A stretch of DNA of 64,000 nucleotides, from positions 8,363 to 72,362 of the forward strand of contig JAGAYH010000021.1 of assembly GCA_017940565.1 (NCBI GenBank). Reading direction: 5' to 3'. Below the pieces are notes generated by a model that had not been told where the DNA came from, did no database searches, and was given only the letters and a program-made list of their open reading frames with translations. The number at the start of each line of letters is the position of its first letter. Within the stretch, counting starts at the first letter, position 1. Origin of the DNA: Bacteroidaceae bacterium (GTDB lineage: Bacteria; Bacteroidota; Bacteroidia; Bacteroidales; Bacteroidaceae). Below are positions 8,500 to 37,151 of the stretch, piece after piece. Position numbers and translations under genes: made by a program.

Positions 8500-8510
8500 C
8501 ACTACCTTCC

Positions 8511-13298: not shown

Positions 13299-13306
13299 CA
13301 AAATTA
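13299..13306 (-). promoter_or_regulatory. -7 box TAATTTTG for the portal gene
   Basis: Exact TAnnTTTG match 31 nt upstream of the ATG at 13267. ATTGTA lies exactly 32 nt further upstream. Confidence 0.5.
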
Positions 13307-13326: not shown

Positions 13327-13382
13327 TCGGATAAATTGTACAATCTATCACGCGCCACCGCGGCTGCTTCAATTACCTTTGC
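13327..13382. repeat. 56-bp regulatory module, copy 1
   Basis: 53 of 56 positions are identical to 32057-32112, and the first 36 bp are perfect. It contains the 10-bp palindrome ATTGTACAAT (13335-13344) and a plus-strand TACCTTTG -7 box (13374-13381). Confidence 0.85.
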
Positions 13383-13425
13383 ACCGTAATTTTTTCATAG
13401 TTATAAAAATTTTCTTGATTGTTAA

Positions 13426-13463
13426 AGCGGAGCTGTCGTGATGACAACTCCGCTTCTCTTTTG
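13426..13463. terminator. hairpin terminator between the giant gene and the portal promoter
   Basis: AGCGGAGcTGTC - gtgat - GACAaCTCCGCT, followed on the plus strand by TCTCTTTTG. It lies 28 nt downstream of the giant ORF stop on the minus strand. The T-tract is better on the plus strand. Confidence 0.55.
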
Positions 13464-13490
13464 TGTATTACTCAACCACAGCAACGCACA

Positions 13491-16400
13491 TTACTGCCCA
13501 GTCAGCCCAATCTCCAACGAATCTATCCGTGCCATCGTCTCCTGACGCATCTTCCGAATCTGCGCCATCGTCTCAGCGTCGTCATTACCGATTGTACCAA
13601 GTTTCTTCTTTAACGCTTTTATCCCGACAACACCATACTCTTTACTACCATTGTTCATTCGGTTAATGAGTCCTCTCGCAACCAGCCAATCACGATTGGC
13701 TTCATTCCACGCCGCCTTTTCTTTACCGCTCAGCGTAGGGTCTGTAGCAACTTCTTCCTGCTTAACATAAACCTCTGTAGTTTTCTTATATAGTTTACTG
13801 ATTCGATAATCATCACGCACGTCATCAAAGGTGCTGTACATAAGATAGCGCTCGTTGTCCTCCGCGGTCTGACGCACATCCTCGCCCTTGATGAAGGCCT
13901 CGGCTTGTTTGCGGGCTTCGGCCAGTGTAAACGCTTTATATTCACTTTCGGCAAGATATTTTATAATTTTGTTTTTAGCCGTAGCTTTATCTTTTGCCAA
14001 CCGGGCATTGTCAAACGCCTCTTTAGCTGACGCCAAATCAACTACACCGTCAGAAAACGCTTCACGTTCTTTTTTGGTAAACGAACTTTTTACGCTCTTC
14101 AAAACATCTTCGGCGTCAATACCGTTCAGAACACAGGCTTTATAGGCTTTTTCTACCGCATCCATATCGCCTCTCTCAATAGCGGCGGTAAAGTCACGCT
14201 TGGCCTTCCAAATACTATATCCCTTGGAGCTTGGCATAGCCAAATCCAAGAAATGAAAATCTTGCTTCGCCTCTGTAGAGTTTGATATAAACAGACCTGA
14301 CACGTCAACCGCAGAATAAGGCATGAAACGGTTGACGGTAAGATAAGCAAGAGCCATCCAAGCACCGTGACGTTTCTTTATCTCCTGCGCAGTGCGGTCG
14401 TTGCCGTTAAAACCTCTAACACCAAGAGAACCTAAAAAGTCAATACTAAAATTCGTACCTGCAGAACCTTTAGTTAAGGCACGGTTAAGCAGCGGACGTG
14501 GGAATCCCCAGCCTTCAGCATCCTCAAACAGTTCCGGAAACTCTCTGAACTGCTTACCCCAGCGCAGATAGCGCTCACGACCATCAGAATAGCGGCCAAG
14601 AAACAACAATGATTGTTTGCCAGGTGCATTACCTAACATGGTGTAGTCATACCATTTCATGCCGTTCGGATAGGCCAATTCATACGGCGACTTATAGTCG
14701 GGATTCGTTTTACGTTCTTCTTCGGCTTTCTTCTTTTCTTTATCTTCATCTATCATGCGCTCTATTATGTTAGCCGCGTTCATTGCCAATAGTATCATCA
14801 AAACGCCTATTGCATAACATTTAACCGCTGTCATGGAGCGCAAACGCTTAAACTCGTCGGTTTTGAAGAATCCCTCAGAGTATAATGTGCCTATACCAAA
14901 GTTGGCCAAGAAATGGCGCATTGTAGAGAAAGTCCAGTCTGGGCTCAATATGCCACGACGAAGCCACTTCAAGGTTTTAGGGCTGATGCCTAATAATTCC
15001 CAATACTGACCACCGAACGTGTCATTGACAAGCTGACCATACTCGTCCAACATACGGTCGCGCATCTGGTCTCTTGTTAAGCCGTTTACCGTGGCATTAT
15101 CTGTCTTGTACAACTTGTCCAGACGTTTATCCGTTTGTTCGACAAAACGATTGAAAAGACTCAACTTCAAACCGTCATGCAACTGACGCCACAACAAATC
15201 ATCCCATTCCTTACCGACAGCACCCAACATCTTTCGTAGGGCGTCAACGCTGGTTATAACCTTATTCGGATGTTTCTGCGAATAGACGTACAGAGCACGG
15301 CTTATTTTATTGCTAATGGCTGTAGTGTCGGCGGCAGCAAAGTCCGAAGTGGCACCTAACTGCACCAAATGTCTGGCGGCCAACTTGAAATCTTCGGGAT
15401 GAGCAAATGCTGGAGATTCACCACGCAACAATGGGTCTACTACATATTTCATAAAGCCCTTGTTGGCAGAAGCCTTCACGCCAGCGCGGTAGGTATCAAA
15501 AAAGATATATTTGAACAAGGCCTTTGCAAGCCCAAATGGACCTCTCTGTGCCAACATGACTTCATTCAACGCCAAGTGATGAAATAATGAAACTGACAAA
15601 TTCATTCGCTTGGCAAATCGGTTAATAATATCATATATACGGCCAATTTCATGAGCCACATCTCCCACATCACTGCGTAAAACGCCAAAGGCAGCCCGGA
15701 AATACGGCACCGCAGCCCGATGAACATAAACCGTACCAAGCCCAGGGATTCTATAGCCTGGGTTGTGATAATACTCTTCATCAATGGGGCGAACATGGGT
15801 TGTGATAATAGGTATACGAGCCACTACCTCACCAGAGCTGTTCTTCTCTACAACCGTAACGGACGACATATCTTCCAACATAGCCTTGTTAGCCAAGGCT
15901 TCGTTGTTTTGGCGGCTATAATGAGCCATAATATCAAGCAACGATTTATATTTTGGCACCAATCCGAGAGCCTCACCATTCAAATAAGTATCTACACTGC
16001 GGAGGTGCATATTAGGGCTTTGCGTGCGCTGCCGGTTCTCCGGTAAAGGACCTTTCAAATATGCAGACAGTTTCTTTGGTGTGGATAGTGCCTCCAGAAC
16101 TTGTGGGTCACTCTTACCGGCATCCCACACATGATTGATGTACCCTTCGGCAATATAACCGGCATCACGGCGAAGGCCTGCAGCATCCAACATATGATAC
16201 ATGCGGTCGTACCATTCTTTGATGTCCGACAACAGCTGTTTCACCTCGGCACTGTCCATCAACGCACGCATCGCGGGAGACATATCGGGCAATGTCCGGG
16301 CGGTAATCAGGTCATAAACAGCCAATACGTCTCCGGACGTGATATACCCTCTGTCACTATTATTGCTATTGGCGCTATCGGTTCTATCCTCACCGTTCAA

Positions 16401-19400
16401 AACCTTGGCAACTTCCCTGGCGGCGTCAATCACCTCCGGCGTGGCGGCGGCCTCATCCGGATTGTAATTCAAGTCGCGCAACTTGGCAATGGCAGCCTCG
16501 GCACGCAATAGATCAGCCGGCGTGACTCGTAACCGATTTAGAGCAAAGGTAAGAGTAGCATTTAACTGTCTGGCTATGATTTGGCGGGCACGCGGAGCCT
16601 CCATCATATAAGGCAAAGTCTCCAATACTTTCTTAACCGTTATGTTGGCACCTGCTTCTCGTGCAGATTTAACCAGTGCTTTTACACGGTTCTCTATACC
16701 GTGAATAAACAAAGTGTCTTCTGCATTAGAGCCTTCTAATTGTTTACGTCTGGCGATGACCGAGAACTTCATTTCAAGGTTAGCGCGGCTTTCTTCTATA
16801 TCCAAACCGACATTTAGGCCGATTGCTTCGGCTTCCAAAATTTCGGCTTCGGCTTTCGTCATACCATCCATAGCGCCATTGACAGCAGCTTCTACATCAT
16901 ACTCATACAACTGCTGCCACGAGCGCCCGCGGTCGGCCTTATCTCGCTCTGTTCGCCACGCCCGATAGGCGTCACGCCAACGGGCTGTCAGTTCTTCATC
17001 AAAAGACTCTGGTTCTAAAGGACGGGGATGCTTATCCAAAAAGTCACGCATCTGGTTCCATCCACGCAAGCGCATGACATAAGCCATTTGCGATTCATTC
17101 TTCTTACGCTTTGGTTGGTGGCGCAGACTCGGTGCCTTTTCATAACGGATGCCATCCTCTCCGACAAAAGTACCTTCATTCGCTTCATTTTCGGAACTAT
17201 TGGAACTATCAGTGCCATTGTCACTACTTCCACCTTCCCCTGCCAACTGATAACGGGGTACACCGTCAGAAGACGAGGTTAATCGATTATTACGTTGTCC
17301 TTGAAGTATTTTACCATCTTCTTGACTACCTCTGGACGTATCTTCTTCTGTTCTTCTTGCGCCTTCTCCTCTTGCGGCTGTTTCTTCTCCTCTGTCATAA
17401 CCTAAACTATGTTCTATTGATTCAATTCTTGATTTATCACCACTGTCCTGAAGCAGGTTGGTTACCTCGTCAACAGAACCGTGAGCCATGGCGCGACCCA
17501 GCCACGTGACGAAAAACTCTTCTTTCCACTTCTCCGGCGTGTCGCGGTATTTCTTCTCAATATACGACTTGGAAACCTCACCGCCTTCGTCAGGAGCCAA
17601 ATCCCAAAATGCTTCGGCAATACGCCGCGGAGCGGGACTTGCGCCGTACCAGCTGCGCAAGATAGCGTGAATATTCTCGTGGAAGAACGTTTCCTCTTCC
17701 CTGTCTGACGGGATGCGCTCTGCAAAGATAATGATTTTGTCACTCGGCGGGAAATAAAAGGCATAACTTTTCTCAGTAAATTGCTTTATTTCCTCAACAA
17801 AAGCAATCTTTTCTTCTTGGGTTGGCATGTCGCCTTCAAATATTTCTTCCGGAATGTCCAGCAAATCAAACACCTCTAACCCGTCCATTTTGTCGTTCAG
17901 GAAAACAAGCTGCTTGGAGTTGTATTTATCGGCCATGCGTCGTATGCGCTGCTCGGCCAATTCTCCCGTCCGCGGATAAAACCCGTGTACCAGGTCGGCC
18001 ATCATCGCGTCGGCAAAGTCCTCGGCCTTCATCGTCTTCAGACGGGCGTTGTTCCCGGCGAAGAGGTCGCGGGCCATCGTCCAGAAGCGTTTCAAGGCAC
18101 GGCGCAAGCGGTAGAACATCCGGGCCACACGGGCCTTGCCCATCAGGTCGGGCTCTTCGTTCATCATACGGCGGCGTTCCTCTTCCATGCGCTCCCGTCC
18201 ACGGCGGCCGCTGAAATGCGTGAACACTTCTTCCCACAATTCGTCTCCTTCCAAGTCGGGATAACGCCCTTTCACGTAGTTCACCAGGTCGGCGTCCTGT
18301 TCCAGTTCGCCTTTCAGGTGTTCCCATGCTTCGGGATTGGCCTCGGCAAGGGCTTCCACCCACAGGTGACCGTACTCGTGTATCGGCGTCTCGGCCGTGG
18401 CAATGCGCGGGTCAAGGTAGATTTTGCCGTTAAGCGTAAAACCGTAAGCCTGTCCGTCCGGCGTGCGGAAGAACATCGGTTGCCCCTGCATGACGTCACG
18501 CTTCATCTCCGGAGTGACGTCAACGCTCCACATCTTTTGGGCGGCTTCTTCGAGTACCGGCAACGCCACTTCGCCCACTTTGGCACCCCATTTCTTGACG
18601 TACTTGTTCACGAAACTGGGCAGCATCCGGTCGTAAAAGCCCTTCATGCCTTCGCCACCGATGCGGAGATTGTCACCTTCCCAAGTTTTCATATTTTCCG
18701 TACCTTTGCCTTGTACAGACAGAGCACCTGCGGCTATTTCCTTGCCGACAATCTCACTGATATTCTTTACACCTGACAGGTATTGTTGACCTACACGGTT
18801 TGTCTCGGTAATATTACCTTCATCGTCAAAACCAATATCCATCGTTGGGCCGCCTTGCAGATGAATAAGCAAAGCGCGTTTCCCTTCCTGGTCTATTGCG
18901 GCATCAATACGCCTTACAGACTGGCCGATATTGTATCGCTCCGCCTGTTGCTCGCCCGGGGTCCATGCCACTTTGTCGTAACCGTTCTCGGCGGCATAAC
19001 GCAACATACGCTTCATGGCCAGTTCGTGCCAGTTCTTCTCAAACGGGGCATCGGGAATATCTGAAATGCCGTGATTCTGGAAGCGCTCGCTGGCAGCGTA
19101 CACTTCCTGTTCCAAACGGTCGGCTTCTGTGCGTTCGGCGTCTGTCATGTCGGCATAGATGTCTTCGTAAGCACCGTTATACTTCTCACCCATCCTGCGG
19201 GTGTAAGCATCGTAGGCTTCCTGGGCTTTATTTACGGCATCGCCCAATCTTTCTTCTTCGGCAACGGCTTCGGTTGTCCTATACCCCTTCTCCCGGCCTT
19301 CCTGATGACGTTTGCTCTGTATCTCGTCGATAACCAACACACGGACGTCTCTCTTGACCACGGTTTTTTCGCCTGTTATAGGATGGTTGATTTCTACGGG

Positions 19401-22400
19401 TTCTCTTCCCCATGAATCGCCAAACCTTATCCATGCCACGGCACGGCCGCCTCCGGCATCGCCGAAGTGGATGTCATCGTCATCGTTCCACGACTCAATG
19501 GTCGGCACGGTCAAAGCAATTTCGCGCTTATTCTCCAGCCCTTCGGTGGTGTAGGCGAGACGGGTGGTGTTTATCTTCTTGTTATCATCGCCAGCTATAT
19601 TTGAGTTATAGGCGTCTTCATCTACATCCCACTCGCCAATAGCGTAACTGATGGTTCCGTCGGAGATAGAATAACCCACCTCAAAGTCGTCACCATAGCG
19701 GTCTTTCATCTGTTCGGTCAGCCACTCGTCACGCTCGGAAGCATCCATGCCGTCAAGTTCATCGCCTGCAAGTCTGATTTCCGTATCTATCTGCTCCTGC
19801 AATTCTTCGAGACTGTGACCGCGGGCAATGTTTTCTTGAATCTCTCTCTCCGTTGCAGAGAGTATATCTACATTCTCGCTATAGTTCACCTCCTCAATCT
19901 GAATCTGGTTTTGGTCGATGAAGTCGAGCACTTCCTGCTTGGTGAGGCTCTTTTTGTCCTGACCCTTCAGCCAGTCGGACAGACCGAGCCACTTGTCCTC
20001 ACCGGCCTTCAGGCCGCCCTGCTTCTGCAACATGGCCAGCCATTGTTCCGGCGTGGCTTTCTCCTGTCTGATACCCTCCACGGCACGGCGGGCATTGCTC
20101 ACAAAGACGGCCTGAGATACGTTGGCTTTCTGATATTTCGCATTTTTTTCGTCGTTTTCTATCGCTATCTCGGCATCTCTTCGTATCTTTGCAGCGTCGA
20201 AGGACGAGATAACGGTTACTGCATTTGCTCTTGCGGCTTCTGTTCCGTTCGTAACATTTGCAGGTTTAGACGTGGTATGCAGGGGGCGTTCATTAGAACG
20301 AGCATCTGCACCTCGTGAAGACAAAGTAGCCCACATGGTTATGGTATCCATATCATCAGGGCTATTTTTTTGCTCTTTTTCAACGACAAGAACAACACCA
20401 TTTTGAAGGCGTTTTTCAAAACGTATAGATTCCCTGCCATCGCTACTTGCACTACCTGGAATCACATTATCCGGAGCGGTCATAATATACGGGGCGAGTT
20501 TGAAATCTTCATCACGAAGAGGGATGCTGTTCTGGTCAATTTTCATGCCGCCGACACCATGGTTGTTCTTACTGTGTATTATACCGTTGGCATAGATGTT
20601 ATGGGTGTCAAAATCTCTACCCATTGCACGGCGCACCTTTCTTTGTGTTGACAGAGGCAATTCTATCTCCACGCGTTGGTCATTGTGCTTACCAGAGAGA
20701 CTCTCTTCAATAAATCGCTCTGCCTCTTGCAGGGCGTTCAGTCGCTTTTGCAGGCGCACACCTTCTCCATTCGCCATGTCCAGCACGCGCTGGCCTTCCT
20801 CCCAGTCGGTGGAGGTGGGAATACCGATGGCATTGAAGTGGTCGGCCATATACGCCGTCTCCTCACGCTCTTCCTGAGTGGCAGGACGGACGTCTTCGGA
20901 ACTGGTGAGTTGGTACTGGGGTTCATTCACCGCATTATAGTCCACCTCCGGCTCACCAAGCAAACCGCTCTCGGAGGCGCTGTGACCGATGTGCATCACT
21001 TCCAGGAACGGAGCTTGCAGCTGTTTCATACGCAGTGACAACCGCGACAAGCGCTTGTCATCCTCCTTCGTGTAGTCATAGTTCCCGTATAAGATGCCGC
21101 GTACGCCACCGCACTGGTGCACGTAACCGGCCAACAATTCGCCGGCCTCCGCGTACGATTTTATCTCGCTGAGTTTCGTCCACGGCAGGAAGACGTTGGC
21201 CACCACGCGCATGTCCTGCGTAACGACCAACAGACTCATCTTCTTGTGCTCACCCAAGCGGTGACTGCTGACAAACTGCGCCACTTTCAGGCTGCTGTCG
21301 ACCTTGAACGCCTCGGCGGGGTTCCAGTCGGGAGCGAACACCTGCTTGCTGAACTGATATACCTTGATGGGTATTTCGTTACCGGTTGCTTGCGGCATCT
21401 CTTCTTCGACACTATAGGTCTCATACGACGTTTCTATACTCTCAAACTCGCCGTAGTTGCCACTGGTGGTGTCGATGATGATTCCCTGTTGCACGACATC
21501 CTCGCCGAAGGCTCGCTTGATATGGTTGAGCACTTCCTGGTCTTGGCGGGACGCTTTTAAGTTACCGCTCGGATGGTTGTGTACGAAATAGACGGTATCG
21601 GGTTTTAGCGCCTGATAGGCCACAAACGCGGTCTCGAAGGGTGCCGCCGTCTTATTGTAACTGCCCATGCCCAGATGCACTATCGTGGGACGGCCGTCCT
21701 TCAACAACACGAGGAAGGCGTTTTCTACCGAGGCGGTCTCCAGTTGCTTGAAGATAAAGGCCACGTCTTCGGCACTTTCTATCTTCTCCTTGCCGGTGAA
21801 GTTAAACTGCCCGGTCTCTTCATAGACGCGCTCCACACGGCACGTCTCACCGGGCTCCAGCTTGCGCAGGCGCAGCGTGGTCGGGTCGAAAGCCTCCACG
21901 GCGTTCTTCTGCTCTTCGTACTGCTGCTTGGCAGCTTCACGCTCGGCTTCACGCTGGGCTTCCATCTCCTCGTCGTAACGCTCGGTTTCCAAGAAGTCGA
22001 TGTACGGCGTCAGGGCATCCATCTGCGCCCGCAGGGCGGTGCGCTCGTCCGTGGCATAGCCGCCGTTCAACCAGCGGCGCGACACATCGCCATACATACC
22101 GTAGGCATCGTCCAGACTGGTATTGCTCTGCTCCAACTGCTGGGCATAGGCCAACTGGGCATCGTCGTATTCCTGCTCGTGACGGCGGTCATATTCGTCG
22201 GCGTAGAAGTCGCGGTCATTGGCACCGCTCTCACCGATACGGTCTAACAACTGCGCGTCGCTCATCCCGCCGATTTCATCCGCCAACGCCTGCCCGCTGG
22301 CACGGTTGGCACTGTTGTTGCCGTTGCCTCTCTCACTCTCGAACAAACTCTGATAAACGACTTGTTGCCCGTCCAGCGTATTGTATATTGTCTGCGGTTC

Positions 22401-25400: not shown

Positions 25401-28400
25401 ATTTTCTTGCCCGTTTATTTGGCCGGTATCGGGAGTATTTGTAATTTTGCTTTCAGAAGAGATGCTTTGAGGAGTTATTCCCGAGCCCTCTGTCGCAGTC
25501 TCGGCTTTTAATGGCTGCACATAGTCCAAACCTTGCCCCTCAGCCGAAGAGGTAGTCGCATCTTTCGGAGTGCGCCAAATGACATCTCCTTCAGTTAAAA
25601 GCCGCAGCAGTTTGTTGCGGTTTTTTTCTTGATTAGACACAACAACTTCACGGCCGTCCTTACTTACTGTTACCGATGTGAAATAGTAATAACGGGAGCC
25701 GTCGGCTTTGGTAAACGCTTTTACAAAAATGTATGAAGAATTACGCTCTGTAATCTGCCCCTCGTTGGCTTCACTCGGCGTTTCTATAACCACATCAGGA
25801 TTTTCAAGTGTAGGCTTAATCATCCCAAGTTTGCCTTCGCGGCCCTTACGCATAAGTTTGGTGAACTGGTTTTCACCCATCTTCACTTCACCTATAGGTG
25901 TATTCACGATACCGTCTTCTCCGAACAAAGCATCCCAATTCTCTATAGTTAATTCTACTTCGGGCGCTTCCGCTGCACGATTTTCCATTTCAGAGACAAA
26001 AGAAATAGCATCGTTTGGACTTAATTTTTCTTGCCGCTGCTCTGGCTCTTCGTTGGGATTAGCCCCATTAACCCCAGTTTGCCCATCCGAGGAAACAAGC
26101 GGTTGCCCGCCCTCGCCATTGGCACTATCGGCACTATTGATACTATTGATACTATCCTCTACCGCCTTTGTCTCTTCTTCGCGGAGGTAACCTCTCACTT
26201 CATCAGCTGACAAACTGAAGGTTTCTTCGGGATTGTCGGCGGAGCGCACAATGACATCATTTCCTTCCACACGGTCAATCACGGCTCGCGCTTCCTCGCC
26301 GGCGGCGGAAATTGTAAATTCACGCCCAGGCGTAAGCGCCGTGTTATCTATCCAGTCATTGACACGCTGGGAATATTCATCCACGGCCTGATTAAAGGCG
26401 GCGGCCAACAGGTCATCCACTGGTTGCACCTCTCCGATGGTCTTGATGTCACGCGTCGATACTTGACGGTTCTGACCGGCGGCGTCGGTCACCATTACTG
26501 TACCGTATTCATTCTCGGGGTCTCCACTGCGCAGATAGACACGCGAACCGTCAGCCAGTTCCATTTCCACAACGGTATTCTCCTCCGTGGCACGGCTCGC
26601 TATCTCGGCCCTTATCTGGTCTCGCTGTGGTCCCATCTCCGTCACGGCCGACTCGATGCCCCGCATACGCTCGTTGGCAGCAGACAAGGCTTCCACGGCC
26701 GAACGCTGCTCGGCAGTCAGCTCATTCTCGTGCGAAGCAATAAAGGCGTCCAAGTCAGCGTCACTATTGACGGCCGCCGTCAACTCATCCGCCAAAACAC
26801 TGTCACCGAAGGCACGCGCCACACGGGCCTCGGCAATACGGCTCTCACGACCGGCAAGAGCCACGGCCTGCCCATCATCGTTAGCCAAGGCATCACGCAT
26901 CAACGCAACACCTTCTCCACGATAGTCTGGCCGCTCTGGGGCTTCACTCGGCACTTCAGGGGCACCGCCATCAATAATCCTATTATTACCTTCCAATCCC
27001 GTTTCTTCCTGAGATGGACCTTCAATCTGTTTGCGGGTGAACTGCTCCGGACGGACGCGTTCGCGACCGAGGATGTTGTCTTGGAGGGTGGCTACATAAT
27101 CTTCTACCAACGCTTGCTCGTCGGTGCTGCGCTCACGTTTTTCAAGAATGGTTTTTAATTTACCATGCTCCAACCCGTGACGGCTTTCAAAATCCATGAC
27201 GATATCTTGCAGCGCACCGCTCTCGCCCGCCATTTTACCAAGCAGTTTCATGGTAGCATCTACAGATTGCTGCTCGTCTTTAGACAACGATTCGCCACGA
27301 GACATTTTCTCGAGGCCGGAACGGAAGGATTCATTGTTTTTGAGTACCCACTGCTCTTCCTCTGTCAACGCTTCGCCTCGGCTTTCTTTGTCCCTTAGCG
27401 CACTGATATATTCTTCTGACATGCCGGCTGCCCAACCGTCCTTTAACGCGGCAGCATCCCAACGGTTGGTGATATCGTCGGCAACCACTCGTTTCTCCAA
27501 GGCATCTATTTGGTTTAGCTGAACCTGCCACGTTTCACGTTGAACGGTGGCGGAGGCATCTTCTGAAGATTTGGCAGCTTGACGGTCTATTACACGGCCA
27601 TCTCTGTCTAACCATTCTACATAATGTTTCCCGTCGGTTTCAACGGCGCGGACAGCGGTCGCAGTGTTCAATCCGCGGCGGTAGTCACCGGTCAACAGGG
27701 CATACCACTTGCGAGCCTCCTTTTCAGTGATAGCACCCTCATCATAAAGTAGGTCTAACTGATGCAGACCGTTGGTGACATCCCTGTCTTCTGGCTTCAA
27801 GGCATTCACATCCGTAACATCAGAGCGTGACGGACGGCCGGCAAGTTCTTGGCTTGGGTCGGCTAACTTCACGGCAATATCGGTCAAGCGATCACCAAAA
27901 CCTAAATCACGCATCTTTGCTACATCACTTGGCGTGATTTCATAATTTTCCCGGAAATATTGGTTTTTCTTGGCGGCATTACGACTGGCGATAAAACCTG
28001 GTACGTCTAAGGTGGCAAACATGGCCACATTCTTCAGGTAGTTTTGCCCTAACTCGGACCACGACATCGGTTTGCCGTTCTCATCGTAGTATTCCAGAGC
28101 GCCGACTCCCGTCATACCGGCAGCATTGGTGGCGATGCTTGCTCCTTTACCGGCTAAAGAGGATGCAAGACCATGACCGAACCTGTTCGTGATATAATGC
28201 TCGGGGATGGCTCCGGCGCCAAACAGCGCACCGCCTGCAGCTCCCCAACCCATGTCCGTAAACATACGGCCAATAATATCTGTGGGACCAACCGTCGGTT
28301 CTTGGTGCTCTGTTCCGCTCATGGCATCCAAGGAGCGGGTACTCTCGGCACCAGTTGGCTGTGTTAATGTGTTGACGGGTGATGTGGCAAAACCGTGCAG

Positions 28401-30266
28401 GCCAAAGGTTGTCGCACCGCTGATGGCGTGACTGCCTACTTTAGTCTTTAATGACTGACTGGCTATCTGCTCGGCAATACGACCGGCCTGGCGTTTGCCA
28501 AGACCGCGGGCGACCAAGTCTTTACTTATCTTATTCACGGCACTTTTGACAGCCCCTCTGGCAGCAAGACCGCCTACAGCCTGAGGACCGAGGAACGTCC
28601 AGAAATCAAAGAGGAAGGAACCGACTTCGCTGGCTACCTCGGTCATAAAACTGGGGTCATAGGCTTTCGCGGCCAACTGGTCAAGGTAGTTCTCGTAATC
28701 TGTTTGAACGGCACCAACGGTCATCTTACCGGTGACGCTGTTCAAAAAGGCGCTCTTGAATATCTGTTCTATGGTGCTGTTCGCTTTCCTCTCGTTAACC
28801 AACCGGCCCTGGAGCTGTTGGTACATCTGTGCTCCGAATAAGGCTCGTTGTTCTTCCGACATTCCTTTGGTAAGTTCGTCTAACCGACCGATGGCGGCGT
28901 TAATGGCGTTCTCTGGAGCAGAAAGCTGATTGGCTTCGCGCATCTTTCCGAAGTTGACAACGGTACCCTGAGCTCCCTGGCCACCGTAGTCTGTTACCAT
29001 AATGTCCTTGGCCTTGGATTGTGCGGCTTCCTTTCCAACAGCCAACTGTTCTTCAAAGGTCTTCATGACATCGGCCTCTATAGCCTCGCGCTGCTTCTTC
29101 CGCTCTATGCGCTGAATAGCCATAGGGTTGACACGACCCGTGGGCATCGGACGGCCATATTCATCTATATAGGGATTGTAAGCGTCGCGTTCGGCTTGTA
29201 ATTGCTCGGCAACGCCCATAGGATTCCATGGCGCATTCATCCCGATAGCATCGCGCAGGTTGGGAAGTATGAATTGATTCCAATACTCTTCCGGAGTTAC
29301 ACCCAGCCACGAGGCTTCTTGTTGTAATCTGGCGGCATCTTTAGATTTTTTCCCCATTACCGCGCGGGTGACAATATTCAGGGCGTTTTCACGCTGTTTG
29401 ACGGTGGCTTCTTCAGGCATGAGGGCCAACGCTTCCTTTGAGAGGCTGTTGACGTAGTCTCGCATATTTTCAGTGGCCACAGACGTATGGTAACGCTGCA
29501 TCTCTTCGGCATCACTGCCTTCAGGGATATCGTGGGCGCGGTTATAACGCTTCACTTCTTCCAGCGGCGTCACCAGCTCGTTATTAACGACAATGCCTTC
29601 CTGATAGAATTGAGGCACATTCTGCCCATCTGTTTGTGCGGTCTCATTGGATGCCGAGACTTCTTCACTGCCGGACGTAACTCCCAATTTATGCCAAGGA
29701 CCTACAAGATAGTCGCCTTGCAGTTCACCCGCACCCGCAATCTCTTTCTTTTCCTCGGGCACGGCGGCTTCCTGCGCCTGGCTACTATTGGAACTATTGT
29801 TGCCGCTCTCCTCTTCGCGCTTCGCCTGAAGCACCTCGGCCAAAGTGCCGCCCAACTGACCGCCGGCGGACACACTGCGAGAAACGGCTTCGTCCACGAC
29901 TACATTGTTCTCGCTGGCACCGGTCGGCACTGCCGGCTGCTGTGCGGGAACATTCTCTTCTGGTACACGACCACGGCTATCATCAACCGCCGGTTGCGTC
30001 ACACCGCCAGCTTCTGGCACGGCGGCTTGCTGGTCCTGACCACTATTGTAACTATCGGCACTATTACTACTATTGACACCTATCCAACTCAAAAATTCAT
30101 CTTCCGAACCCACATCGTCATAACCGTCGTTAAGCAATAATTGATGAACTTTTTTGGCGTTACTCTTCTCCGAGACAAACGCGCGGAACTCGTCTTCCGT
30201 ACCCACATCGTCATAACCGTCGTTAAGCAATAATTGATGAACTTTTGTGATATTATCTTGTGCCAT
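13491..30266 (-). CDS. giant polyvalent protein (5,591 aa); probable packaged or injected multi-domain virion protein
   Basis: One uninterrupted 16,776-nt ORF next to the portal gene. Motifs read directly: HNHPSGNLKASRQD (RadC/JAB), HEYGH and HENIH (zincin-like), TTDGFVLIA...YPNWKAVIP...ALVMPMN (DnaN-like), and WHELAMKRMLRYAAENGYDKVAWTPGEQQAERY...GGEGMKGFYDRMLP. There are also hydrophobic and Gly-zipper segments and seven Ser/Asn-rich linkers. Confidence 0.8.
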   Translation of the reverse strand: MAQDNITKVHQLLLNDGYDDVGTEDEFRAFVSEKSNAKKVHQLLLNDGYDDVGSEDEFLSWIGVNSSNSADSYNSGQDQQAAVPEAGGVTQPAVDDSRGRVPEENVPAQQPAVPTGASENNVVVDEAVSRSVSAGGQLGGTLAEVLQAKREEESGNNSSNSSQAQEAAVPEEKKEIAGAGELQGDYLVGPWHKLGVTSGSEEVSASNETAQTDGQNVPQFYQEGIVVNNELVTPLEEVKRYNRAHDIPEGSDAEEMQRYHTSVATENMRDYVNSLSKEALALMPEEATVKQRENALNIVTRAVMGKKSKDAARLQQEASWLGVTPEEYWNQFILPNLRDAIGMNAPWNPMGVAEQLQAERDAYNPYIDEYGRPMPTGRVNPMAIQRIERKKQREAIEADVMKTFEEQLAVGKEAAQSKAKDIMVTDYGGQGAQGTVVNFGKMREANQLSAPENAINAAIGRLDELTKGMSEEQRALFGAQMYQQLQGRLVNERKANSTIEQIFKSAFLNSVTGKMTVGAVQTDYENYLDQLAAKAYDPSFMTEVASEVGSFLFDFWTFLGPQAVGGLAARGAVKSAVNKISKDLVARGLGKRQAGRIAEQIASQSLKTKVGSHAISGATTFGLHGFATSPVNTLTQPTGAESTRSLDAMSGTEHQEPTVGPTDIIGRMFTDMGWGAAGGALFGAGAIPEHYITNRFGHGLASSLAGKGASIATNAAGMTGVGALEYYDENGKPMSWSELGQNYLKNVAMFATLDVPGFIASRNAAKKNQYFRENYEITPSDVAKMRDLGFGDRLTDIAVKLADPSQELAGRPSRSDVTDVNALKPEDRDVTNGLHQLDLLYDEGAITEKEARKWYALLTGDYRRGLNTATAVRAVETDGKHYVEWLDRDGRVIDRQAAKSSEDASATVQRETWQVQLNQIDALEKRVVADDITNRWDAAALKDGWAAGMSEEYISALRDKESRGEALTEEEQWVLKNNESFRSGLEKMSRGESLSKDEQQSVDATMKLLGKMAGESGALQDIVMDFESRHGLEHGKLKTILEKRERSTDEQALVEDYVATLQDNILGRERVRPEQFTRKQIEGPSQEETGLEGNNRIIDGGAPEVPSEAPERPDYRGEGVALMRDALANDDGQAVALAGRESRIAEARVARAFGDSVLADELTAAVNSDADLDAFIASHENELTAEQRSAVEALSAANERMRGIESAVTEMGPQRDQIRAEIASRATEENTVVEMELADGSRVYLRSGDPENEYGTVMVTDAAGQNRQVSTRDIKTIGEVQPVDDLLAAAFNQAVDEYSQRVNDWIDNTALTPGREFTISAAGEEARAVIDRVEGNDVIVRSADNPEETFSLSADEVRGYLREEETKAVEDSINSINSADSANGEGGQPLVSSDGQTGVNGANPNEEPEQRQEKLSPNDAISFVSEMENRAAEAPEVELTIENWDALFGEDGIVNTPIGEVKMGENQFTKLMRKGREGKLGMIKPTLENPDVVIETPSEANEGQITERNSSYIFVKAFTKADGSRYYYFTSVTVSKDGREVVVSNQEKNRNKLLRLLTEGDVIWRTPKDATTSSAEGQGLDYVQPLKAETATEGSGITPQSISSESKITNTPDTGQINGQENEGGNGNSGTVIDGRPRSNRRKASLTPMQQRERALGDYLDFYDYVERTLAASGRGLKVIWGDDPVTGTRGLGAHLTGQSESERRQYIWLLGTKKNGAFYPEQLAEELWQGYREERNDNGLPIDDIGSEQASDAFGVVLDVLRSHNRKESMMREAEERHSDMQRQYDEAERDQANNWAIGQGFEDIDEWQDYSDYCYQKAEEDSRYYDEVISIFAEQYEQEDNERRITESHRVAAQSDEGAVPGRTGEGPAVVQGEQESPAGERDTTADGPSPHNAERGNRIDSDGSLGTGTGEGREVGRAQSGNLPASVAPLVADLERQSDERDALHQAWLSNEIDDSENRQRLRALDEQMSELRRRIIPLLSSLSQEELNAISAYGEEHQLVELPIFVEDEERRRKVAKTEADRFAEGLEAQGSIPHGKAVAKFKASDFASKDSTHAALGGTYYDPDGYAVTTDGFVLIADKQRYDPTKEGKVIAERNIPTVAGKGMEINVPYPNWKAVIPTGGQRVSVDWNDLLGFIAGVRAKMKVEYDELRERGDLDKTSFRAYTANATVQVRLPNGEIALFDLSRLERMAAAGTYLGTTEFQYKGNDRAVVSANANGTALVMPMNRIPDEATSYYYDMSGSDMVGEPDMAYNKNTANERFNEELESLTEENAREVQLDCGRPNDILLSCGIENKPIRLYGAKLISKAKKHGYDYHDIKNLPQAISNPIAVFEGSQKGSFAILTELQINGNNVLATLTVGKGGHDVDFNIITSVYGKDNNNVVRWINSQKLLYANKEKALDYISVPAPIAGAQSNQELQSAAKVIESFENPKLPERNLFSGEPEIAFNAESEEIFNAAKEKFGRTYDIREAGYVLPDGTMLDFSGRHELFGADDSAIRGSRATDHRVISTIAYKYDNDGNEIETGIETDMPDFIKRGGIRIDDNAGTINLAVKPTPEQREVLRRLIQRNDGDVSVDFGDGWDSDHYVEYEGVRPQRVLADIDRYFEEGIKPEGNVMLQEPQTIYNTLDGQQVVYQSLFESERGNGNNSANRASGQALADEIGGMSDAQLLDRIGESGANDRDFYADEYDRRHEQEYDDAQLAYAQQLEQSNTSLDDAYGMYGDVSRRWLNGGYATDERTALRAQMDALTPYIDFLETERYDEEMEAQREAEREAAKQQYEEQKNAVEAFDPTTLRLRKLEPGETCRVERVYEETGQFNFTGKEKIESAEDVAFIFKQLETASVENAFLVLLKDGRPTIVHLGMGSYNKTAAPFETAFVAYQALKPDTVYFVHNHPSGNLKASRQDQEVLNHIKRAFGEDVVQQGIIIDTTSGNYGEFESIETSYETYSVEEEMPQATGNEIPIKVYQFSKQVFAPDWNPAEAFKVDSSLKVAQFVSSHRLGEHKKMSLLVVTQDMRVVANVFLPWTKLSEIKSYAEAGELLAGYVHQCGGVRGILYGNYDYTKEDDKRLSRLSLRMKQLQAPFLEVMHIGHSASESGLLGEPEVDYNAVNEPQYQLTSSEDVRPATQEEREETAYMADHFNAIGIPTSTDWEEGQRVLDMANGEGVRLQKRLNALQEAERFIEESLSGKHNDQRVEIELPLSTQRKVRRAMGRDFDTHNIYANGIIHSKNNHGVGGMKIDQNSIPLRDEDFKLAPYIMTAPDNVIPGSASSDGRESIRFEKRLQNGVVLVVEKEQKNSPDDMDTITMWATLSSRGADARSNERPLHTTSKPANVTNGTEAARANAVTVISSFDAAKIRRDAEIAIENDEKNAKYQKANVSQAVFVSNARRAVEGIRQEKATPEQWLAMLQKQGGLKAGEDKWLGLSDWLKGQDKKSLTKQEVLDFIDQNQIQIEEVNYSENVDILSATEREIQENIARGHSLEELQEQIDTEIRLAGDELDGMDASERDEWLTEQMKDRYGDDFEVGYSISDGTISYAIGEWDVDEDAYNSNIAGDDNKKINTTRLAYTTEGLENKREIALTVPTIESWNDDDDIHFGDAGGGRAVAWIRFGDSWGREPVEINHPITGEKTVVKRDVRVLVIDEIQSKRHQEGREKGYRTTEAVAEEERLGDAVNKAQEAYDAYTRRMGEKYNGAYEDIYADMTDAERTEADRLEQEVYAASERFQNHGISDIPDAPFEKNWHELAMKRMLRYAAENGYDKVAWTPGEQQAERYNIGQSVRRIDAAIDQEGKRALLIHLQGGPTMDIGFDDEGNITETNRVGQQYLSGVKNISEIVGKEIAAGALSVQGKGTENMKTWEGDNLRIGGEGMKGFYDRMLPSFVNKYVKKWGAKVGEVALPVLEEAAQKMWSVDVTPEMKRDVMQGQPMFFRTPDGQAYGFTLNGKIYLDPRIATAETPIHEYGHLWVEALAEANPEAWEHLKGELEQDADLVNYVKGRYPDLEGDELWEEVFTHFSGRRGRERMEEERRRMMNEEPDLMGKARVARMFYRLRRALKRFWTMARDLFAGNNARLKTMKAEDFADAMMADLVHGFYPRTGELAEQRIRRMADKYNSKQLVFLNDKMDGLEVFDLLDIPEEIFEGDMPTQEEKIAFVEEIKQFTEKSYAFYFPPSDKIIIFAERIPSDREEETFFHENIHAILRSWYGASPAPRRIAEAFWDLAPDEGGEVSKSYIEKKYRDTPEKWKEEFFVTWLGRAMAHGSVDEVTNLLQDSGDKSRIESIEHSLGYDRGEETAARGEGARRTEEDTSRGSQEDGKILQGQRNNRLTSSSDGVPRYQLAGEGGSSDNGTDSSNSSENEANEGTFVGEDGIRYEKAPSLRHQPKRKKNESQMAYVMRLRGWNQMRDFLDKHPRPLEPESFDEELTARWRDAYRAWRTERDKADRGRSWQQLYEYDVEAAVNGAMDGMTKAEAEILEAEAIGLNVGLDIEESRANLEMKFSVIARRKQLEGSNAEDTLFIHGIENRVKALVKSAREAGANITVKKVLETLPYMMEAPRARQIIARQLNATLTFALNRLRVTPADLLRAEAAIAKLRDLNYNPDEAAATPEVIDAAREVAKVLNGEDRTDSANSNNSDRGYITSGDVLAVYDLITARTLPDMSPAMRALMDSAEVKQLLSDIKEWYDRMYHMLDAAGLRRDAGYIAEGYINHVWDAGKSDPQVLEALSTPKKLSAYLKGPLPENRQRTQSPNMHLRSVDTYLNGEALGLVPKYKSLLDIMAHYSRQNNEALANKAMLEDMSSVTVVEKNSSGEVVARIPIITTHVRPIDEEYYHNPGYRIPGLGTVYVHRAAVPYFRAAFGVLRSDVGDVAHEIGRIYDIINRFAKRMNLSVSLFHHLALNEVMLAQRGPFGLAKALFKYIFFDTYRAGVKASANKGFMKYVVDPLLRGESPAFAHPEDFKLAARHLVQLGATSDFAAADTTAISNKISRALYVYSQKHPNKVITSVDALRKMLGAVGKEWDDLLWRQLHDGLKLSLFNRFVEQTDKRLDKLYKTDNATVNGLTRDQMRDRMLDEYGQLVNDTFGGQYWELLGISPKTLKWLRRGILSPDWTFSTMRHFLANFGIGTLYSEGFFKTDEFKRLRSMTAVKCYAIGVLMILLAMNAANIIERMIDEDKEKKKAEEERKTNPDYKSPYELAYPNGMKWYDYTMLGNAPGKQSLLFLGRYSDGRERYLRWGKQFREFPELFEDAEGWGFPRPLLNRALTKGSAGTNFSIDFLGSLGVRGFNGNDRTAQEIKKRHGAWMALAYLTVNRFMPYSAVDVSGLFISNSTEAKQDFHFLDLAMPSSKGYSIWKAKRDFTAAIERGDMDAVEKAYKACVLNGIDAEDVLKSVKSSFTKKEREAFSDGVVDLASAKEAFDNARLAKDKATAKNKIIKYLAESEYKAFTLAEARKQAEAFIKGEDVRQTAEDNERYLMYSTFDDVRDDYRISKLYKKTTEVYVKQEEVATDPTLSGKEKAAWNEANRDWLVARGLINRMNNGSKEYGVVGIKALKKKLGTIGNDDAETMAQIRKMRQETMARIDSLEIGLTGQ
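30109..30246 (-). repeat. in-frame tandem duplication at the 5' end of the giant gene (93-bp period)
   Basis: A perfect 45-bp match (30109-30153 and 30202-30246) encodes KVHQLLLNDGYDDVG(T/S)EDEF twice, at aa 8-27 and 39-58. Confidence 0.9.
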
Positions 30267-30289
30267 TTTTGCTTTGTTTTTTATTAGTG

Positions 30290-31459
30290 TTATTTTGAAG
30301 GACCTATATTAAGTCCAGATGACCTTCTATTTTTTCCGCTGCCAACGCCCAAGCCAGACGACCTTCCCCCGCTGTTTGGCTTCGTCACCACTGTAGTCTT
30401 GGTCTCTTGCCCGGTCAACGGGTCAACCTTCGTCGTGGTTTTCGTCGTGCCCAGCGCCTTCAGTTCGTTCAAGGCGTCCTGAGCTTCGTAATGACTGATC
30501 TGACCTTTCGCCACCATATCGCGGATGCGGTTCTGCTCCCTGGCAATGTCTAAGCGACCTTCATCATATTGCTTCTTCCAGTCCAACTTGGCACTGTCCA
30601 ACGCTTGTTTGCCGGCCAACCTCTCTTCTTGCTGCTTGCGCCACTGCCACAACTGCTGACGGTCTTGCTCGCGGGCTTTGGCAATATCGGCGGCACGCTG
30701 CTCCTGAGCGCGGCGGGCATACGCCTGGAGATATTGGTTCGACAACTGCTGGCGGAACTGACGGGTGACATCGCGCAGACGTTGCTGACGCTGTGACAAC
30801 GCTGGGCCACTCTCCAACGGGGCGGAAGGCGCACCTTGCGTCGTGCCATAGAAGTTACCCAAGTGGCTCAACAGGTTCGTCAACTGCTCCCAACGCTCAC
30901 GACGGCGCTGACGCTTCTCTTCTTTCTGCTGCTCCGTTGACGACAAGCGCGGGTCGCCGGCCTGCAACACCTGCATCATCGACACATAGTCTGGCGTTCT
31001 TCCCTGCGACTGCTCATAATTGGCATAGTCCGACAACAACTGGTGCACGGGCACATCCGCACGGCGCATACTCTCGTCCATCGCGCCGTCTTCACCACGT
31101 CGTCCGTAAACGACATCGCCCAAGGAATAATGGCCCCAGTCGGCCAAGTACGGATTCGGCGTGTCACCGCTGGTCCCGGGAGCCTGCTCCCACGTCATAC
31201 CGGCACGCTTCGCCTCGGCACGCGCCATGTCGCTCGGCCAAGATACTGCAGGGCCAACCGGAGCAACAGCCTCATTAGGCTCAACCGCTACGTTTGCCTC
31301 AGGCTGCACGGCCGACGGGGCAGGCGAAAGCATGTCTGCACCATTGGCTCCGCCTTCACTATAGTTACTGTTGTCCCCAAGCCCTCGCACCGCGTTCAAG
31401 GCGGCTTCAACGGCGGACCGCGGATTATATCTGTTCTGAAATGTTCCCATGGCTACCAA
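30290..31459 (-). CDS. hypothetical phage protein, Gln/Arg-rich coiled coil
   Basis: 389-aa ORF immediately upstream of the giant gene. It has a long Q/R/E-rich helical region and a basic Gly/Ser tail. It overlaps the upstream gene by 7 nt. Confidence 0.55.
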   Translation of the reverse strand: MVAMGTFQNRYNPRSAVEAALNAVRGLGDNSNYSEGGANGADMLSPAPSAVQPEANVAVEPNEAVAPVGPAVSWPSDMARAEAKRAGMTWEQAPGTSGDTPNPYLADWGHYSLGDVVYGRRGEDGAMDESMRRADVPVHQLLSDYANYEQSQGRTPDYVSMMQVLQAGDPRLSSTEQQKEEKRQRRRERWEQLTNLLSHLGNFYGTTQGAPSAPLESGPALSQRQQRLRDVTRQFRQQLSNQYLQAYARRAQEQRAADIAKAREQDRQQLWQWRKQQEERLAGKQALDSAKLDWKKQYDEGRLDIAREQNRIRDMVAKGQISHYEAQDALNELKALGTTKTTTKVDPLTGQETKTTVVTKPNSGGRSSGLGVGSGKNRRSSGLNIGPSK

Positions 31460-31998
31460 TCAACTTCAAAACCTTTCTTTCCTATCTTCGTCGTACCGAA
31501 GTGCATCCCGCCGGCGGCACCGGCAACTCCGGCTGCCGCCTGCTGGATAGCCTGAGCTTGGCTCAAACCTTTTTGCAGTTTCGTCGAAGCGATGTAATTG
31601 TTCATCGCGTCCAGCTGATTGTCGGCCCGGTTCCATATCTGCTCGCGACGGCCGGCCCCCTGAACCGCCTGCTGCTGCATCATCTCACCGACAGCCTCCG
31701 AAGCGGCCTGTTTCTGCATCGCAAGACTCGCATCGGTACCTCCCGTCACCACATTCGAGGCCGCCTCACGCTTCGACTGTTCGTCCAATACCTTCTGCGC
31801 CTGCGTCACCGCGGCTTGACTCTCCGCACTCTGCGTCGGGTCTTGATAATACAGCGCATCACGGTGCGCACGCACATCGGCCATGCGGTCTTCCATGGCC
31901 GAAATGGCATCATTATAACCTCTGTTCGCTTTCTTCGCAGCCAAGGCACCGCCCAGAAGGGAGGCACCGGCACCAACAAGACCACCTATAAGTCCCAT
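31453..31998 (-). CDS. hypothetical phage protein with an N-terminal glycine-zipper helix
   Basis: 181 aa. The N-terminus is MGLIGGLVGAGASLLGGALAAKK. It is the first gene of the leftward operon. Confidence 0.55.
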   Translation of the reverse strand: MGLIGGLVGAGASLLGGALAAKKANRGYNDAISAMEDRMADVRAHRDALYYQDPTQSAESQAAVTQAQKVLDEQSKREAASNVVTGGTDASLAMQKQAASEAVGEMMQQQAVQGAGRREQIWNRADNQLDAMNNYIASTKLQKGLSQAQAIQQAAAGVAGAAGGMHFGTTKIGKKGFEVDW

Positions 31999-32028
31999 AA
32001 TAGATAAGTTTAATGTTTATAAACACTA

Positions 32029-32036
32029 CAAAAATA
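32029..32036 (-). promoter_or_regulatory. -7 box TATTTTTG for the leftward operon
   Basis: Exact TAnnTTTG match 30 nt upstream of the ATG at 31998. ATTGTA lies exactly 32 nt further upstream. Confidence 0.5.
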
Positions 32037-32056
32037 CGAGACCGCTGCCACCGCAA

Positions 32057-32112
32057 TCGGATAAATTGTACAATCTATCACGCGCCACCGCGTCAGCATC
32101 AATTACCTTTGC
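32057..32112. repeat. 56-bp regulatory module, copy 2
   Basis: Direct repeat of 13327-13382. It contains the palindrome ATTGTACAAT (32065-32074) and a plus-strand TACCTTTG -7 box (32104-32111), 16 nt upstream of the ATG at 32128. Confidence 0.85.
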
Positions 32113-32127: not shown

Positions 32128-32499
32128 ATGGCAAAAAAAATCAAAACGGAAAGCAACAAAGGACAGTTCCAAGACGGACACAAAAAAAAGGGAGGGCGCA
32201 CCAAAGGTACACCCAACAAAACCACACGCAACCTCCGACGCGTCCTCGAAGAACAACTCTCTCCCCACCTCGAAGAAATAGGTACTACCATCGAACGTAT
32301 CAAAGACCCCGCACAGAAGTCCGCCGCTCTCGCCCAGTGGACCAGCTACCTGCTGCCAAAATATTCCAATACAACCATCACCAACGACACCGCACGCGAC
32401 ATCGCCACAGAAGAATATATCAGCCAACTCAACCAACAATACTCCGCACAGGACATACATATCGACATCAACACCCTGCGCATCGTCGATAACGAATAA
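32128..32499 (+). CDS. small basic phage protein, possibly terminase-small-subunit-like or DNA-binding
   Basis: 123 aa. The N-terminal KGQFQDGHKKKGGRTKGTPNKTT resembles the F.kG.sGNP.GRPKG motif seen at the N-terminus of many small-terminase-like phage proteins (recalled as DUF5681). This is weak evidence. Confidence 0.35.
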   Translation: MAKKIKTESNKGQFQDGHKKKGGRTKGTPNKTTRNLRRVLEEQLSPHLEEIGTTIERIKDPAQKSAALAQWTSYLLPKYSNTTITNDTARDIATEEYISQLNQQYSAQDIHIDINTLRIVDNE

Positions 32500-32645: not shown

Positions 32646-32653
32646 CCGTCTCC

Positions 32654-32692
32654 GAACTGGTGACAAAAAGACACCAGTTCACCACTATTTTT
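32654..32692 (+). terminator. hairpin terminator after the rightward phage operon
   Basis: A perfect 9-bp stem, GAACTGGTG (32654-32662) with CACCAGTTC (32672-32680), followed by a T5 run at 32688-32692. Confidence 0.5.
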
Positions 32693-32734
32693 CCACTACT
32701 TTAGTGGCTATTCCCACTAAAACCACTATCTTTG
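32682..32734 (+). promoter_or_regulatory. phased CCACTA hexamer array ending in an exact TATCTTTG -7 box
   Basis: CCACTA occurs at 32682, 32693, 32714 and 32723, with an inverted TAGTGG at 32702. Spacing is 9-12 bp. TATCTTTG lies at 32727-32734. Confidence 0.5.
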
Positions 32735-32740
32735 TACCAA

Positions 32741-32890: not shown

Positions 32891-32954
32891 TATGTCAGAA
32901 CCTGTATTTTGACAAAAAAGCACTATCTTTACACACGTTTTACTGCACTTCACG

Positions 32955-35727: not shown

Positions 35728-35736
35728 CTGTCGCCC

Positions 35737-36504: not shown

Positions 36505-36585
36505 CCATATACGCGGCCCGGCGGGCGCCCTGCCCCGCAGACCACAACGGCAGCCCCATCCTTCAAGAAGAAAATTTCATCGAGT

Positions 36586-37112: not shown

Positions 37113-37151
37113 GATGTATTTTTTGTTCCGTAGGGGGAGCAGGTGGCGCGG

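Follow-up and report, generated by a model that had tools for sequence, protein, structure and literature searches.

Two direct repeats around a giant phage gene as probable copies of a bidirectional promoter-operator

Why should two almost identical 56-bp sequences stand in the same orientation on either side of one giant phage gene? The question is raised by a 64,000-nt stretch of DNA (the window) from a metagenome-assembled genome labelled "Bacteroidaceae bacterium", in which a prophage is joined to the host chromosome; the samples concerned are gut and ruminant metagenomes. A first-pass annotation of this DNA proposed that promoter duplication brought in the cassette between the two repeats as one unit, or that the cassette can be lost as one. 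Our results point to another answer: we consider it probable that the two modules are copies of a bidirectional promoter-operator, not a recombination scar, and that their likeness was increased by a conversion patch in the window lineage.

According to the mechanism that we propose, each copy would comprise a 20-bp palindromic operator and one −7 box of two divergent Bacteroidota-type promoters. The first module (copy A) would drive the portal gene, and the second (copy B) would drive an operon of three presumed internal or ejected virion proteins (181, 389 and 5591 aa) as well as a divergent 123-aa gene. One phage-encoded, dimeric DNA-binding protein would bind both operators and switch these units together, most likely as late-gene control after induction. 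Both sites would be ancestral to the phage group, and a short stretch comprising the operator, the 23-bp spacer and the −7 box would have been transferred between them, through gene conversion or a short recombination patch and probably in the direction B to A, which would account for the long identity of the two modules.

Anatomy of the repeated module

The first-pass description of the pair was borne out by sequence comparison. Copies A and B lie 18,730 bp apart in the same orientation and share 53 of their 56 bases; they differ at module positions 37, 39 and 42, and the perfect 36-bp run corresponds to module positions 1-36 (13327-13362 and 32057-32092). The repeat is also not common. A 34-nt core was found at exactly two sites in the window when up to three mismatches were allowed (none expected from 100 dinucleotide-preserving shuffles). 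A search for the 20-bp palindrome with up to five mismatches gave no third copy in either the window or the adjoining 10 kb of prophage further left (L134, L135), so that just two operator copies are present in ~43 kb of prophage. The repeat finder reported the pair as 91 nt at 79% identity (family D5) and no other comparable repeat family involving either copy. The elements of the two sites are the following.

13299-13306, minus strand: −7 box TAATTTTG of the portal gene, 20 nt outside module A, with the portal ATG 31 nt downstream
13327-13382, plus strand: module copy A, between the portal start codon (60 nt away) and the giant-operon terminator
13330-13349: 20-bp palindrome GATAAATTGTACAATCTATC of the portal site, module positions 4-23, proposed operator
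13374-13381, plus strand: −7 box TACCTTTG of copy A, facing the terminator, with no gene downstream in the window genome
13425-13455, minus strand: hairpin terminator 3' of the giant gene, with a 14-bp stem in minus-strand RNA (z = −5.2)
32029-32036, minus strand: −7 box TATTTTTG of the 181-aa/389-aa/giant operon, 20 nt outside module B and 30 nt before the ATG
32057-32112, plus strand: module copy B, in the divergent intergenic region between the 181-aa gene (minus) and the 123-aa gene (plus)
32060-32079: 20-bp palindrome GATAAATTGTACAATCTATC of the giant-operon site, proposed operator
32104-32111, plus strand: −7 box TACCTTTG of copy B; the 123-aa gene has its ATG 16 nt downstream

Read on the plus strand, each module consists of the palindrome (4-23), a G+C-rich spacer of ~23-24 nt and the box TACCTTTG (48-55). 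The two arms of the palindrome (GATAAATTGT/ACAATCTATC) are complementary at nine of ten positions. In both copies, divergent TAnnTTTG boxes stand 67 bp apart with the palindrome midway, which places its center ~47 bp from each of the two predicted transcription starts. All four boxes in the window are exact matches, on the correct strand, to TAnnTTTG, the −7 consensus for the primary sigma factor of Bacteroidota (PMC7366714), and the first-pass view of the repeat as promoter DNA is borne out by these boxes as a prediction. A scan with a sigma-70 model, which is not applicable to this phylum, gave one weak match, no more than expected by chance.

The operator of copy B is flanked on both sides (32037-32056 and 32080-32103) by GCGGTGGC-like G+C-rich motifs, which read on the minus strand as CGCGGTGGCGCG on the left and TTGCGGTGGCAGCGG on the right. 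Similar GGTGGCG/GGTGCG motifs are present on both sides of the operator in a related prophage (L035).

Outside the window, the exact repeat core had no match in IMG/VR, and blastn of the portal/module region against GenBank phages returned none. Scanning GTDB genomes with the 20-mer dyad yielded five unrelated single matches in other phyla (Lentimicrobiaceae, Woesearchaeota, Ferruginibacter and others), and the host itself was not among the matches. A scan of Joint Genome Institute (JGI) metagenomes yielded one short contig, with an ordinary copy-B context. Other contigs keep the diagnostic bases of each copy in place: GGCTGCTTC at copy A (L025, L032-L034), and GTCAGCATC or GTCAACATC at copy B (L023-L031, L131).

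Conservation, covariation and probable conversion of the two sites

We further analyzed the two sites in related phages. On the giant-operon side, 407 homologues of the 181-aa protein were detected (E ≤ 0.001). The 181-aa protein alone found no related loci; an alignment query returned 156 IMG/VR loci. In every locus inspected, the 181-aa homologue is followed by a gene of ~370-470 aa and then by a giant polyvalent gene, and nearly all 181-aa homologues inspected are preceded by a divergent 123-aa homologue. The giant homologues of the relatives measure 5534-6547 aa and carry other effector domains. The region upstream of the 181-aa homologue presents, in 40+ unique sequences, the layout GCAAA[G/T][A/G]TA, 66-67 bp, TAnnTTT[G/A] (68-69 bp in L103 and L036), with a central dyad of the TTGCGCAA or TTGTACAA type between the boxes. 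Equivalent dyads were found upstream of the homologue in L035, L036, L103 and L139 and in the 40+ unique IMG/VR sequences, and the box GCAAA[G/T][A/G]TA (reverse strand) is kept in nearly all relatives.

On the portal side, an alignment scan yielded only five IMG/VR loci, and the group of uncultivated virus genomes from the gut could not be paired with portal-side sites. The relatives compared were L001-L004, L132 and L138 (portals 62-65% identical to that of the window), L133 (83%) and L122 (a short contig). The same layout of two boxes and a dyad was observed upstream of the portal gene in L001, L003, L004, L132, L133 and L138; L003 and L004 differ in a longer inverted repeat and a box spacing of 85 bp. 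L122 presents the dyad and the portal-sense box only. The two-site arrangement is thus old, because both sites are present in relatives whose portals are only 62-65% identical. This also bears on the proposal that the two modules could delete, or could once have inserted, the cassette, since both sites predate the divergence of these portals.

A gene of ~145 aa (gene X, MAKKIK...) is divergent from the portal gene in six relatives (L001-L004, L132 and L138). It is missing from the window, L133 and L122, and its −7 box is still present in the window and L133. The retention of this box (13374-13381) despite the absence of gene X leads to an additional proposal, compatible with the promoter-operator reading: the plus-strand promoter of copy A could produce an RNA of ~50-70 nt ending at the shared hairpin, antisense to the 3' end of the giant operon, which may modulate termination or read-through into the portal gene. 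The T-rich tract that follows the hairpin on the plus strand would fit such a transcript. The sequence between box and hairpin is, however, unconserved between the window and L133, the Rfam scan matched tRNAs only, the RNA runs are sparse, and the box may persist through the conversion patch alone or through a recent loss of gene X. We therefore regard this short RNA as rather unlikely. The terminator hairpin itself is also kept in L133.

Four phage types could be compared at both sites, and the dyad variant matches within each type and differs between types:

Window: AAATTGTACAAT at both sites
L002/L103 (one IMG/VR contig): GATTGGGAAATTTATCA at both sites
L132/L036-L037 (same sample): a 31-bp inverted repeat at both sites
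L138/L139 (same 6547-aa giant gene): AATTATATAATTTAA at both sites

The palindrome therefore combines dyad symmetry, a fixed position relative to the promoters amid diverged flanks, and a variant shared within each genome. This suggests that it serves as the operator of a phage-encoded regulator, because the variants covary within genomes, which a conserved host factor would not predict. The 123-aa protein is the only candidate for this regulator by position. It is a basic protein with the motif GGRxKGTPNK (phrog_8771), for which a Pfam search at E ≤ 1, a profile comparison with the PDB and Pfam scans of the individual family members returned nothing beyond noise; a word-index protein search found three close relatives. 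A host LexA box was considered and rejected: the Bacteroidetes LexA-type motifs GGA-N5-TCC and CTAA-N5-TTAG (PMC8565304) do not match the dyad, which varies with the phage and not with the host.

Repeated operators are known from the OL/OR regions of phages lambda and P22, and the dyads bound by the C protein of phage Mu are activator sites of late promoters. As in these systems, a dyad of ~20 bp is found at two or more promoters, at a fixed distance, with a sequence that covaries with the lineage in the manner of immunity or specificity types. Unlike them, the window presents a single central dyad ~47 bp from two divergent starts, its predicted promoters are of the sigma-ABfr type (TAnnTTTG) and not of the −10/−35 type, and just two sites are seen in ~43 kb of the prophage.

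We take the pair for a regulatory repeat of an ordinary kind, in a group of phages that is undescribed. It is possible, although we hold this only tentatively, that it represents more: an undescribed regulatory switch of a large family of uncultured Bacteroidales/Prevotella temperate phages with P22-type portals and polyvalent proteins of 5,000-6,500 aa, in which a lineage-specific regulator, possibly the 123-aa protein as a member of a new DNA-binding family, co-activates the portal gene and the operon of injected proteins, and recurrent gene conversion keeps the sites alike. If so, the operator variants would act like specificity types, and the orphan promoter of copy A might make a small antisense RNA. 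Almost nothing is known about regulation in the temperate phages of Bacteroidales. Giant polyvalent proteins are regarded as cargo that acts in the front line of counter-defence, and an operator that is conserved and couples this cargo to the portal would give a handle on when and how the cargo is produced, and the operator also marks the phage family in metagenomes.

Conservation at both sites leaves the length of the window identity to be explained. The spacer between the operator and the −7 box is identical at 20 of 23 positions between the two window copies. The relatives L133 (portal 83%) and L035 (181-aa homologue 81%) share with the window, base for base, the −7 box GCAAAGGTA and 22-24 bp of the operator, whereas their spacers have diverged from that of the window (9-16 of 22-23 positions alike). 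Specifically, the window spacer matches that of L035 copy B at 15 of 23 positions and that of L133 copy A at 9 of 23. The similarity of the two modules could in principle reflect the functional convergence of two binding sites without recent copying, given that the operator and −7 boxes are constrained at both sites in all relatives. We consider this very unlikely, as constraint alone does not predict a spacer that is nearly identical between the window copies and unconserved in relatives at 81-83%. A recent conversion patch is suggested instead, because constraint explains the dyad and the boxes and not the spacer, which is divergent in 82% relatives. The spacer identity is specific to the window lineage and most likely the result of recent gene conversion. 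The greater likeness of the spacer to that of L035 copy B weakly hints that the conversion ran from B to A. In the L002/L103 genome, additional within-genome identity is found on the other side of the operator, where it covers the −7 box and the leader. Patches of this kind therefore seem to arise sporadically.

Several observations weigh against this combined reading of promoter-operators and conversion. L133 and L035 come from different samples, and the spacer difference thus compares two genomes. The promoters were read from the sequence, and the RNA runs consist of sparse assembled metatranscriptome contigs. The plus-strand promoter of copy A faces no gene in the window genome. The 123-aa family lacks a recognisable DNA-binding domain, and its AlphaFold2 structure model is unreliable (low confidence; predicted local distance difference test score, pLDDT, of 50). 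The promoter region of the other structural operon (7431-7545) has a different layout and no operator; the element is thus not a general late promoter, because that region lacks it. Finally, the canonical −33 element TTTG lies 19-21 nt upstream of the −7 box, and no clear TTTG was found at this distance from the −7 boxes of the window; the nearest candidate is the TTTA of the operator, 25 nt away. Promoters of the sigma-ABfr type are described by a −7 TAnnTTTG and a −33 TTTG, the latter being weak or absent in some Bacteroidota (PMC7366714 and references therein). The window promoters resemble them in presenting TAnnTTTG 16-31 nt before three start codons, plus one orphan box, and differ from them in having no clear −33 TTTG at the canonical spacing; their activity is a prediction.

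Fate of the bracketed cassette

The interval between the copies was described in the first-pass annotation as holding only a terminator, the giant gene and its two upstream genes, and this is what we found: the hairpin and the open reading frames (ORFs) of 5591, 389 and 181 aa. The genes beside and between the repeats are the following.

8385-10634: large terminase gene (TerL), adjacent to the portal gene
11198-13267, minus strand: portal gene, 689 aa, P22-type (PF16510, E = 1.4e-26; phrog_156)
13491-30266, minus strand: giant gene, 5591 aa, polyvalent virion protein by its Pfam domains
30290-31459, minus strand: 389-aa ORF, second in the operon; other contigs have it annotated as 386 aa
31453-31998, minus strand: 181-aa gene, first gene of the operon; the N-terminus of the protein is glycine-rich and hydrophobic
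32128-32499, plus strand: gene of the 123-aa basic protein, divergent from the operon

The giant protein matches the Pfam domains MuF_C (1.4e-21), PBECR2 (1.7e-14) and RadC (RadC/JAB; 8.4e-7), together with a PBECR3-like match (2.2e-6) below the Pfam cutoff. Several unrelated effector domains are thus combined in one polypeptide encoded beside the portal and terminase genes, as in polyvalent virion proteins, which are packaged and injected by phages (Iyer, Burroughs, Anand, de Souza, Aravind 2017; PMC5512222). MuF_C, PBECR and RadC/JAB beside portal-terminase genes, with domains shuffled between relatives, are features shared with the proteins described there. Relative to typical polyvalent proteins, the giant protein of the window stands at the large end (5591 aa), has two conserved small genes ahead of it and has its own predicted operator-controlled promoter; this comparison concerns the bracketed cargo and not the repeat. 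The 389-aa protein is charged, Q/R-rich and without a family match; the genes at the syntenic position in relatives encode 373-465 aa.

The giant gene contains internal repeats (for example 30094-30249, 29755-30055, 26109-26161 and 17190-17233). Near its 5' end, two 63-nt copies with 94% identity encode a repeated KVHQLLLNDGYDDVG.EDEF segment, and 9-nt periodic runs of the ACTATTGGC type are also present. Many skips and rearrangements were observed in this repeat region in other strains.

Could homologous recombination between the modules delete this 18.7-kb cassette, or have once inserted it, which would make the giant gene a gain-or-loss accessory? Deletions between short direct repeats occur in phage genomes, and RecA-type recombination requires a minimum of ~25 bp, which the 36-bp perfect direct identity of the modules exceeds; this core is a plausible substrate, like other deletion-prone phage repeats. 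The patchy homogenisation in the window and in L002/L103 implies, moreover, that the two sites occasionally interact physically. The predicted product, with a small gene, one module and the portal gene, resembles the layout of gene X, operator and portal gene in L001-L003. As geometry, the earlier statement that a crossover would leave the 123-aa gene, one module and the portal gene is correct. However, no such junction was seen in the contigs examined.

We read 23 contigs containing the exact 123-aa protein (10 places shown) and 10 containing the exact portal (3 places shown). Each of these 33 contigs presents either the full arrangement or a break inside the cassette, and each module retains its own flanks and diagnostic bases; no single-module junction or hybrid diagnostic bases were found among them, and the JGI contig is a normal copy B. 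Several assemblies built with long k-mers span both copies, including contigs of 53 kb, 63 kb and 156 kb. The contigs of eight DNA runs gave no joint from 13.3 kb to 32.1 kb, with the limit that Logan contigs at k=31 cannot resolve a 36-bp repeat: those of runs X1-X4 stop at 13356 and 32086 and resume at 13333 and 32063, and they neither show nor exclude the junction because it has no unique k-mer at k=31. Word depth over the cassette was 10-12, relative to 8-13 on the portal side (X1, X3 and X4), which argues against an abundant deletion form. Four further runs showed heavy mosaicism inside the giant gene and no module-to-module joint.

The relatives point in the same direction. A giant polyvalent gene lies upstream of the portal gene in all portal relatives with enough upstream sequence, the exception being L122, in which the upstream gene has no match to the giant C-terminus. 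The first-pass annotation had expected its proposal to fail if related phages always carried the cassette without the flanking repeats. The cassette is indeed always carried, and the flanking operator and −7 boxes persist; only the extended 56-bp identity is absent. Acquisition or loss of the cassette as a unit thus finds no support, with the cassette in every relative examined and both sites old; the cassette belongs to the conserved content of this phage group and was not added in the window genome, and its presence throughout contradicts the earlier proposal.

One contig presents a much smaller cassette and could be taken to favor deletion. In L025 (2967-6470, corresponding to window positions 13491-31450), the two modules flank a single gene of 1167 aa. 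Its product opens with the 20 N-terminal residues of the 389-aa protein, and the remainder shares 53% identity with the ~1165 C-terminal residues of the giant protein. L025 thus lacks the 389-aa gene and ~4400 N-terminal residues of the giant protein, in flanks that are 96-99% identical to the window. Its breakpoints, however, lie inside genes at ~13.6 kb and ~31.4 kb, away from the modules. L025 could represent a genuine short allele, or else a chimera created in assembly; in the former case, the cassette would be open to replacement of its interior, with breakpoints within genes rather than modules. Taken with the contigs, the depth and the age of both sites, these results make deletion or insertion between the modules an improbable explanation of the repeats. 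Unlike deletion-prone repeats, from which deletion products arise, this pair yielded no such product, and its copies are predicted promoter-operators conserved independently of deletion.

The palindromes could also be the core sites of a site-specific recombinase that excises the cassette as a circle in a programmed manner. The core sites of tyrosine recombinases present dyads with 7-6-7 or 8-4-8-like geometry, which the palindrome resembles, and an integrase gene is found ~0.5-4 kb from copy B in many relatives. Nevertheless, there is no recombinase domain in the interval, the attachment junction lies elsewhere (~32841, in the 3' end of a tRNA-Lys gene), and no excised or deleted form was seen in the contigs examined. 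The dyad also stands in a fixed 66-67-bp frame with −7 boxes, which fits transcription and not strand exchange. We consider such excision extremely unlikely: no polymorphism with a junction exactly at the repeat was found in the contigs read, and the cassette is absent from none of the relatives examined. Promoter-operator copies remain the preferred reading, and this case calls for caution more generally, as direct repeats that exactly bracket a cassette can be promoter-operator copies kept alike by selection and occasional gene conversion.

Prophage end and host surroundings

Cellular genes are found from ~33 kb onward, where the G+C content rises from ~52% to 57-61%. They encode a lipoprotein, an Omp85 protein, a GlgB-like enzyme, a MORN-repeat protein, a penicillin-binding protein and tRNAs. 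The right end of the prophage falls within 32647-32955: identity to empty sites begins at 32842 (junction 32841/32842), in the 3' end of a tRNA-Lys(CTT) gene, and prophage-free strains present an intact tRNA-Lys gene here. The prophage is polymorphic, because seven of the ten places shown are empty (L142, L143, L146-L150). Measured from this junction, copy B lies ~730 bp inward of the right end of a temperate phage that is integrated in a tRNA gene and polymorphic. The module was considered as an attachment site and rejected, the true junction lying in the tRNA-Lys gene.

No integrase is found at the right prophage end of the window; in L036, L038 and L139 an integrase gene neighbours the 123-aa homologue. 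At 32680-32740, immediately inward of the prophage end, at least four copies of CCACTA/TAGTGG occur in both orientations, and this cluster may represent arm-type binding sites of an integrase or excisionase. In L035, positions 1117-6166 align with 36483-31390 of the window, which reveals a related prophage (proteins ~81% identical) at the same host locus, with host flanking genes only ~69% identical to the window in DNA. Either a related species is entered at the same tRNA target, or host and prophage diverged together.

On the host side, an Omp85-family ORF (33361-35979) measures 872 aa in the window and 750-788 aa in other strains (L024, L025 and L142), in which a gene for a SpoU-type methylase is annotated beside it on the other strand. 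Strains thus seem to vary in the 5' region of this host gene. Three palindromic copies of the GTGGTCGGTCCGACCGACC type, in direct and inverted orientation, occupy host intergenic DNA at 36571-36606, 36731-36775 and 37087-37131 and resemble repetitive extragenic palindromic (REP) or other small repeat elements. A tRNA array on the minus strand (45457-45826) reads Gly(GCC)-Leu(GAG)-Leu(CAG)-Gly(GCC), and both tRNA-Gly genes with their flanks form an exact 82-nt duplication. Finally, three tandem 21-nt units of the TCCGCCACCGCCTCCCTGACC type are located at 60839-60913, in the 3' end of a 987-aa ORF on the minus strand.

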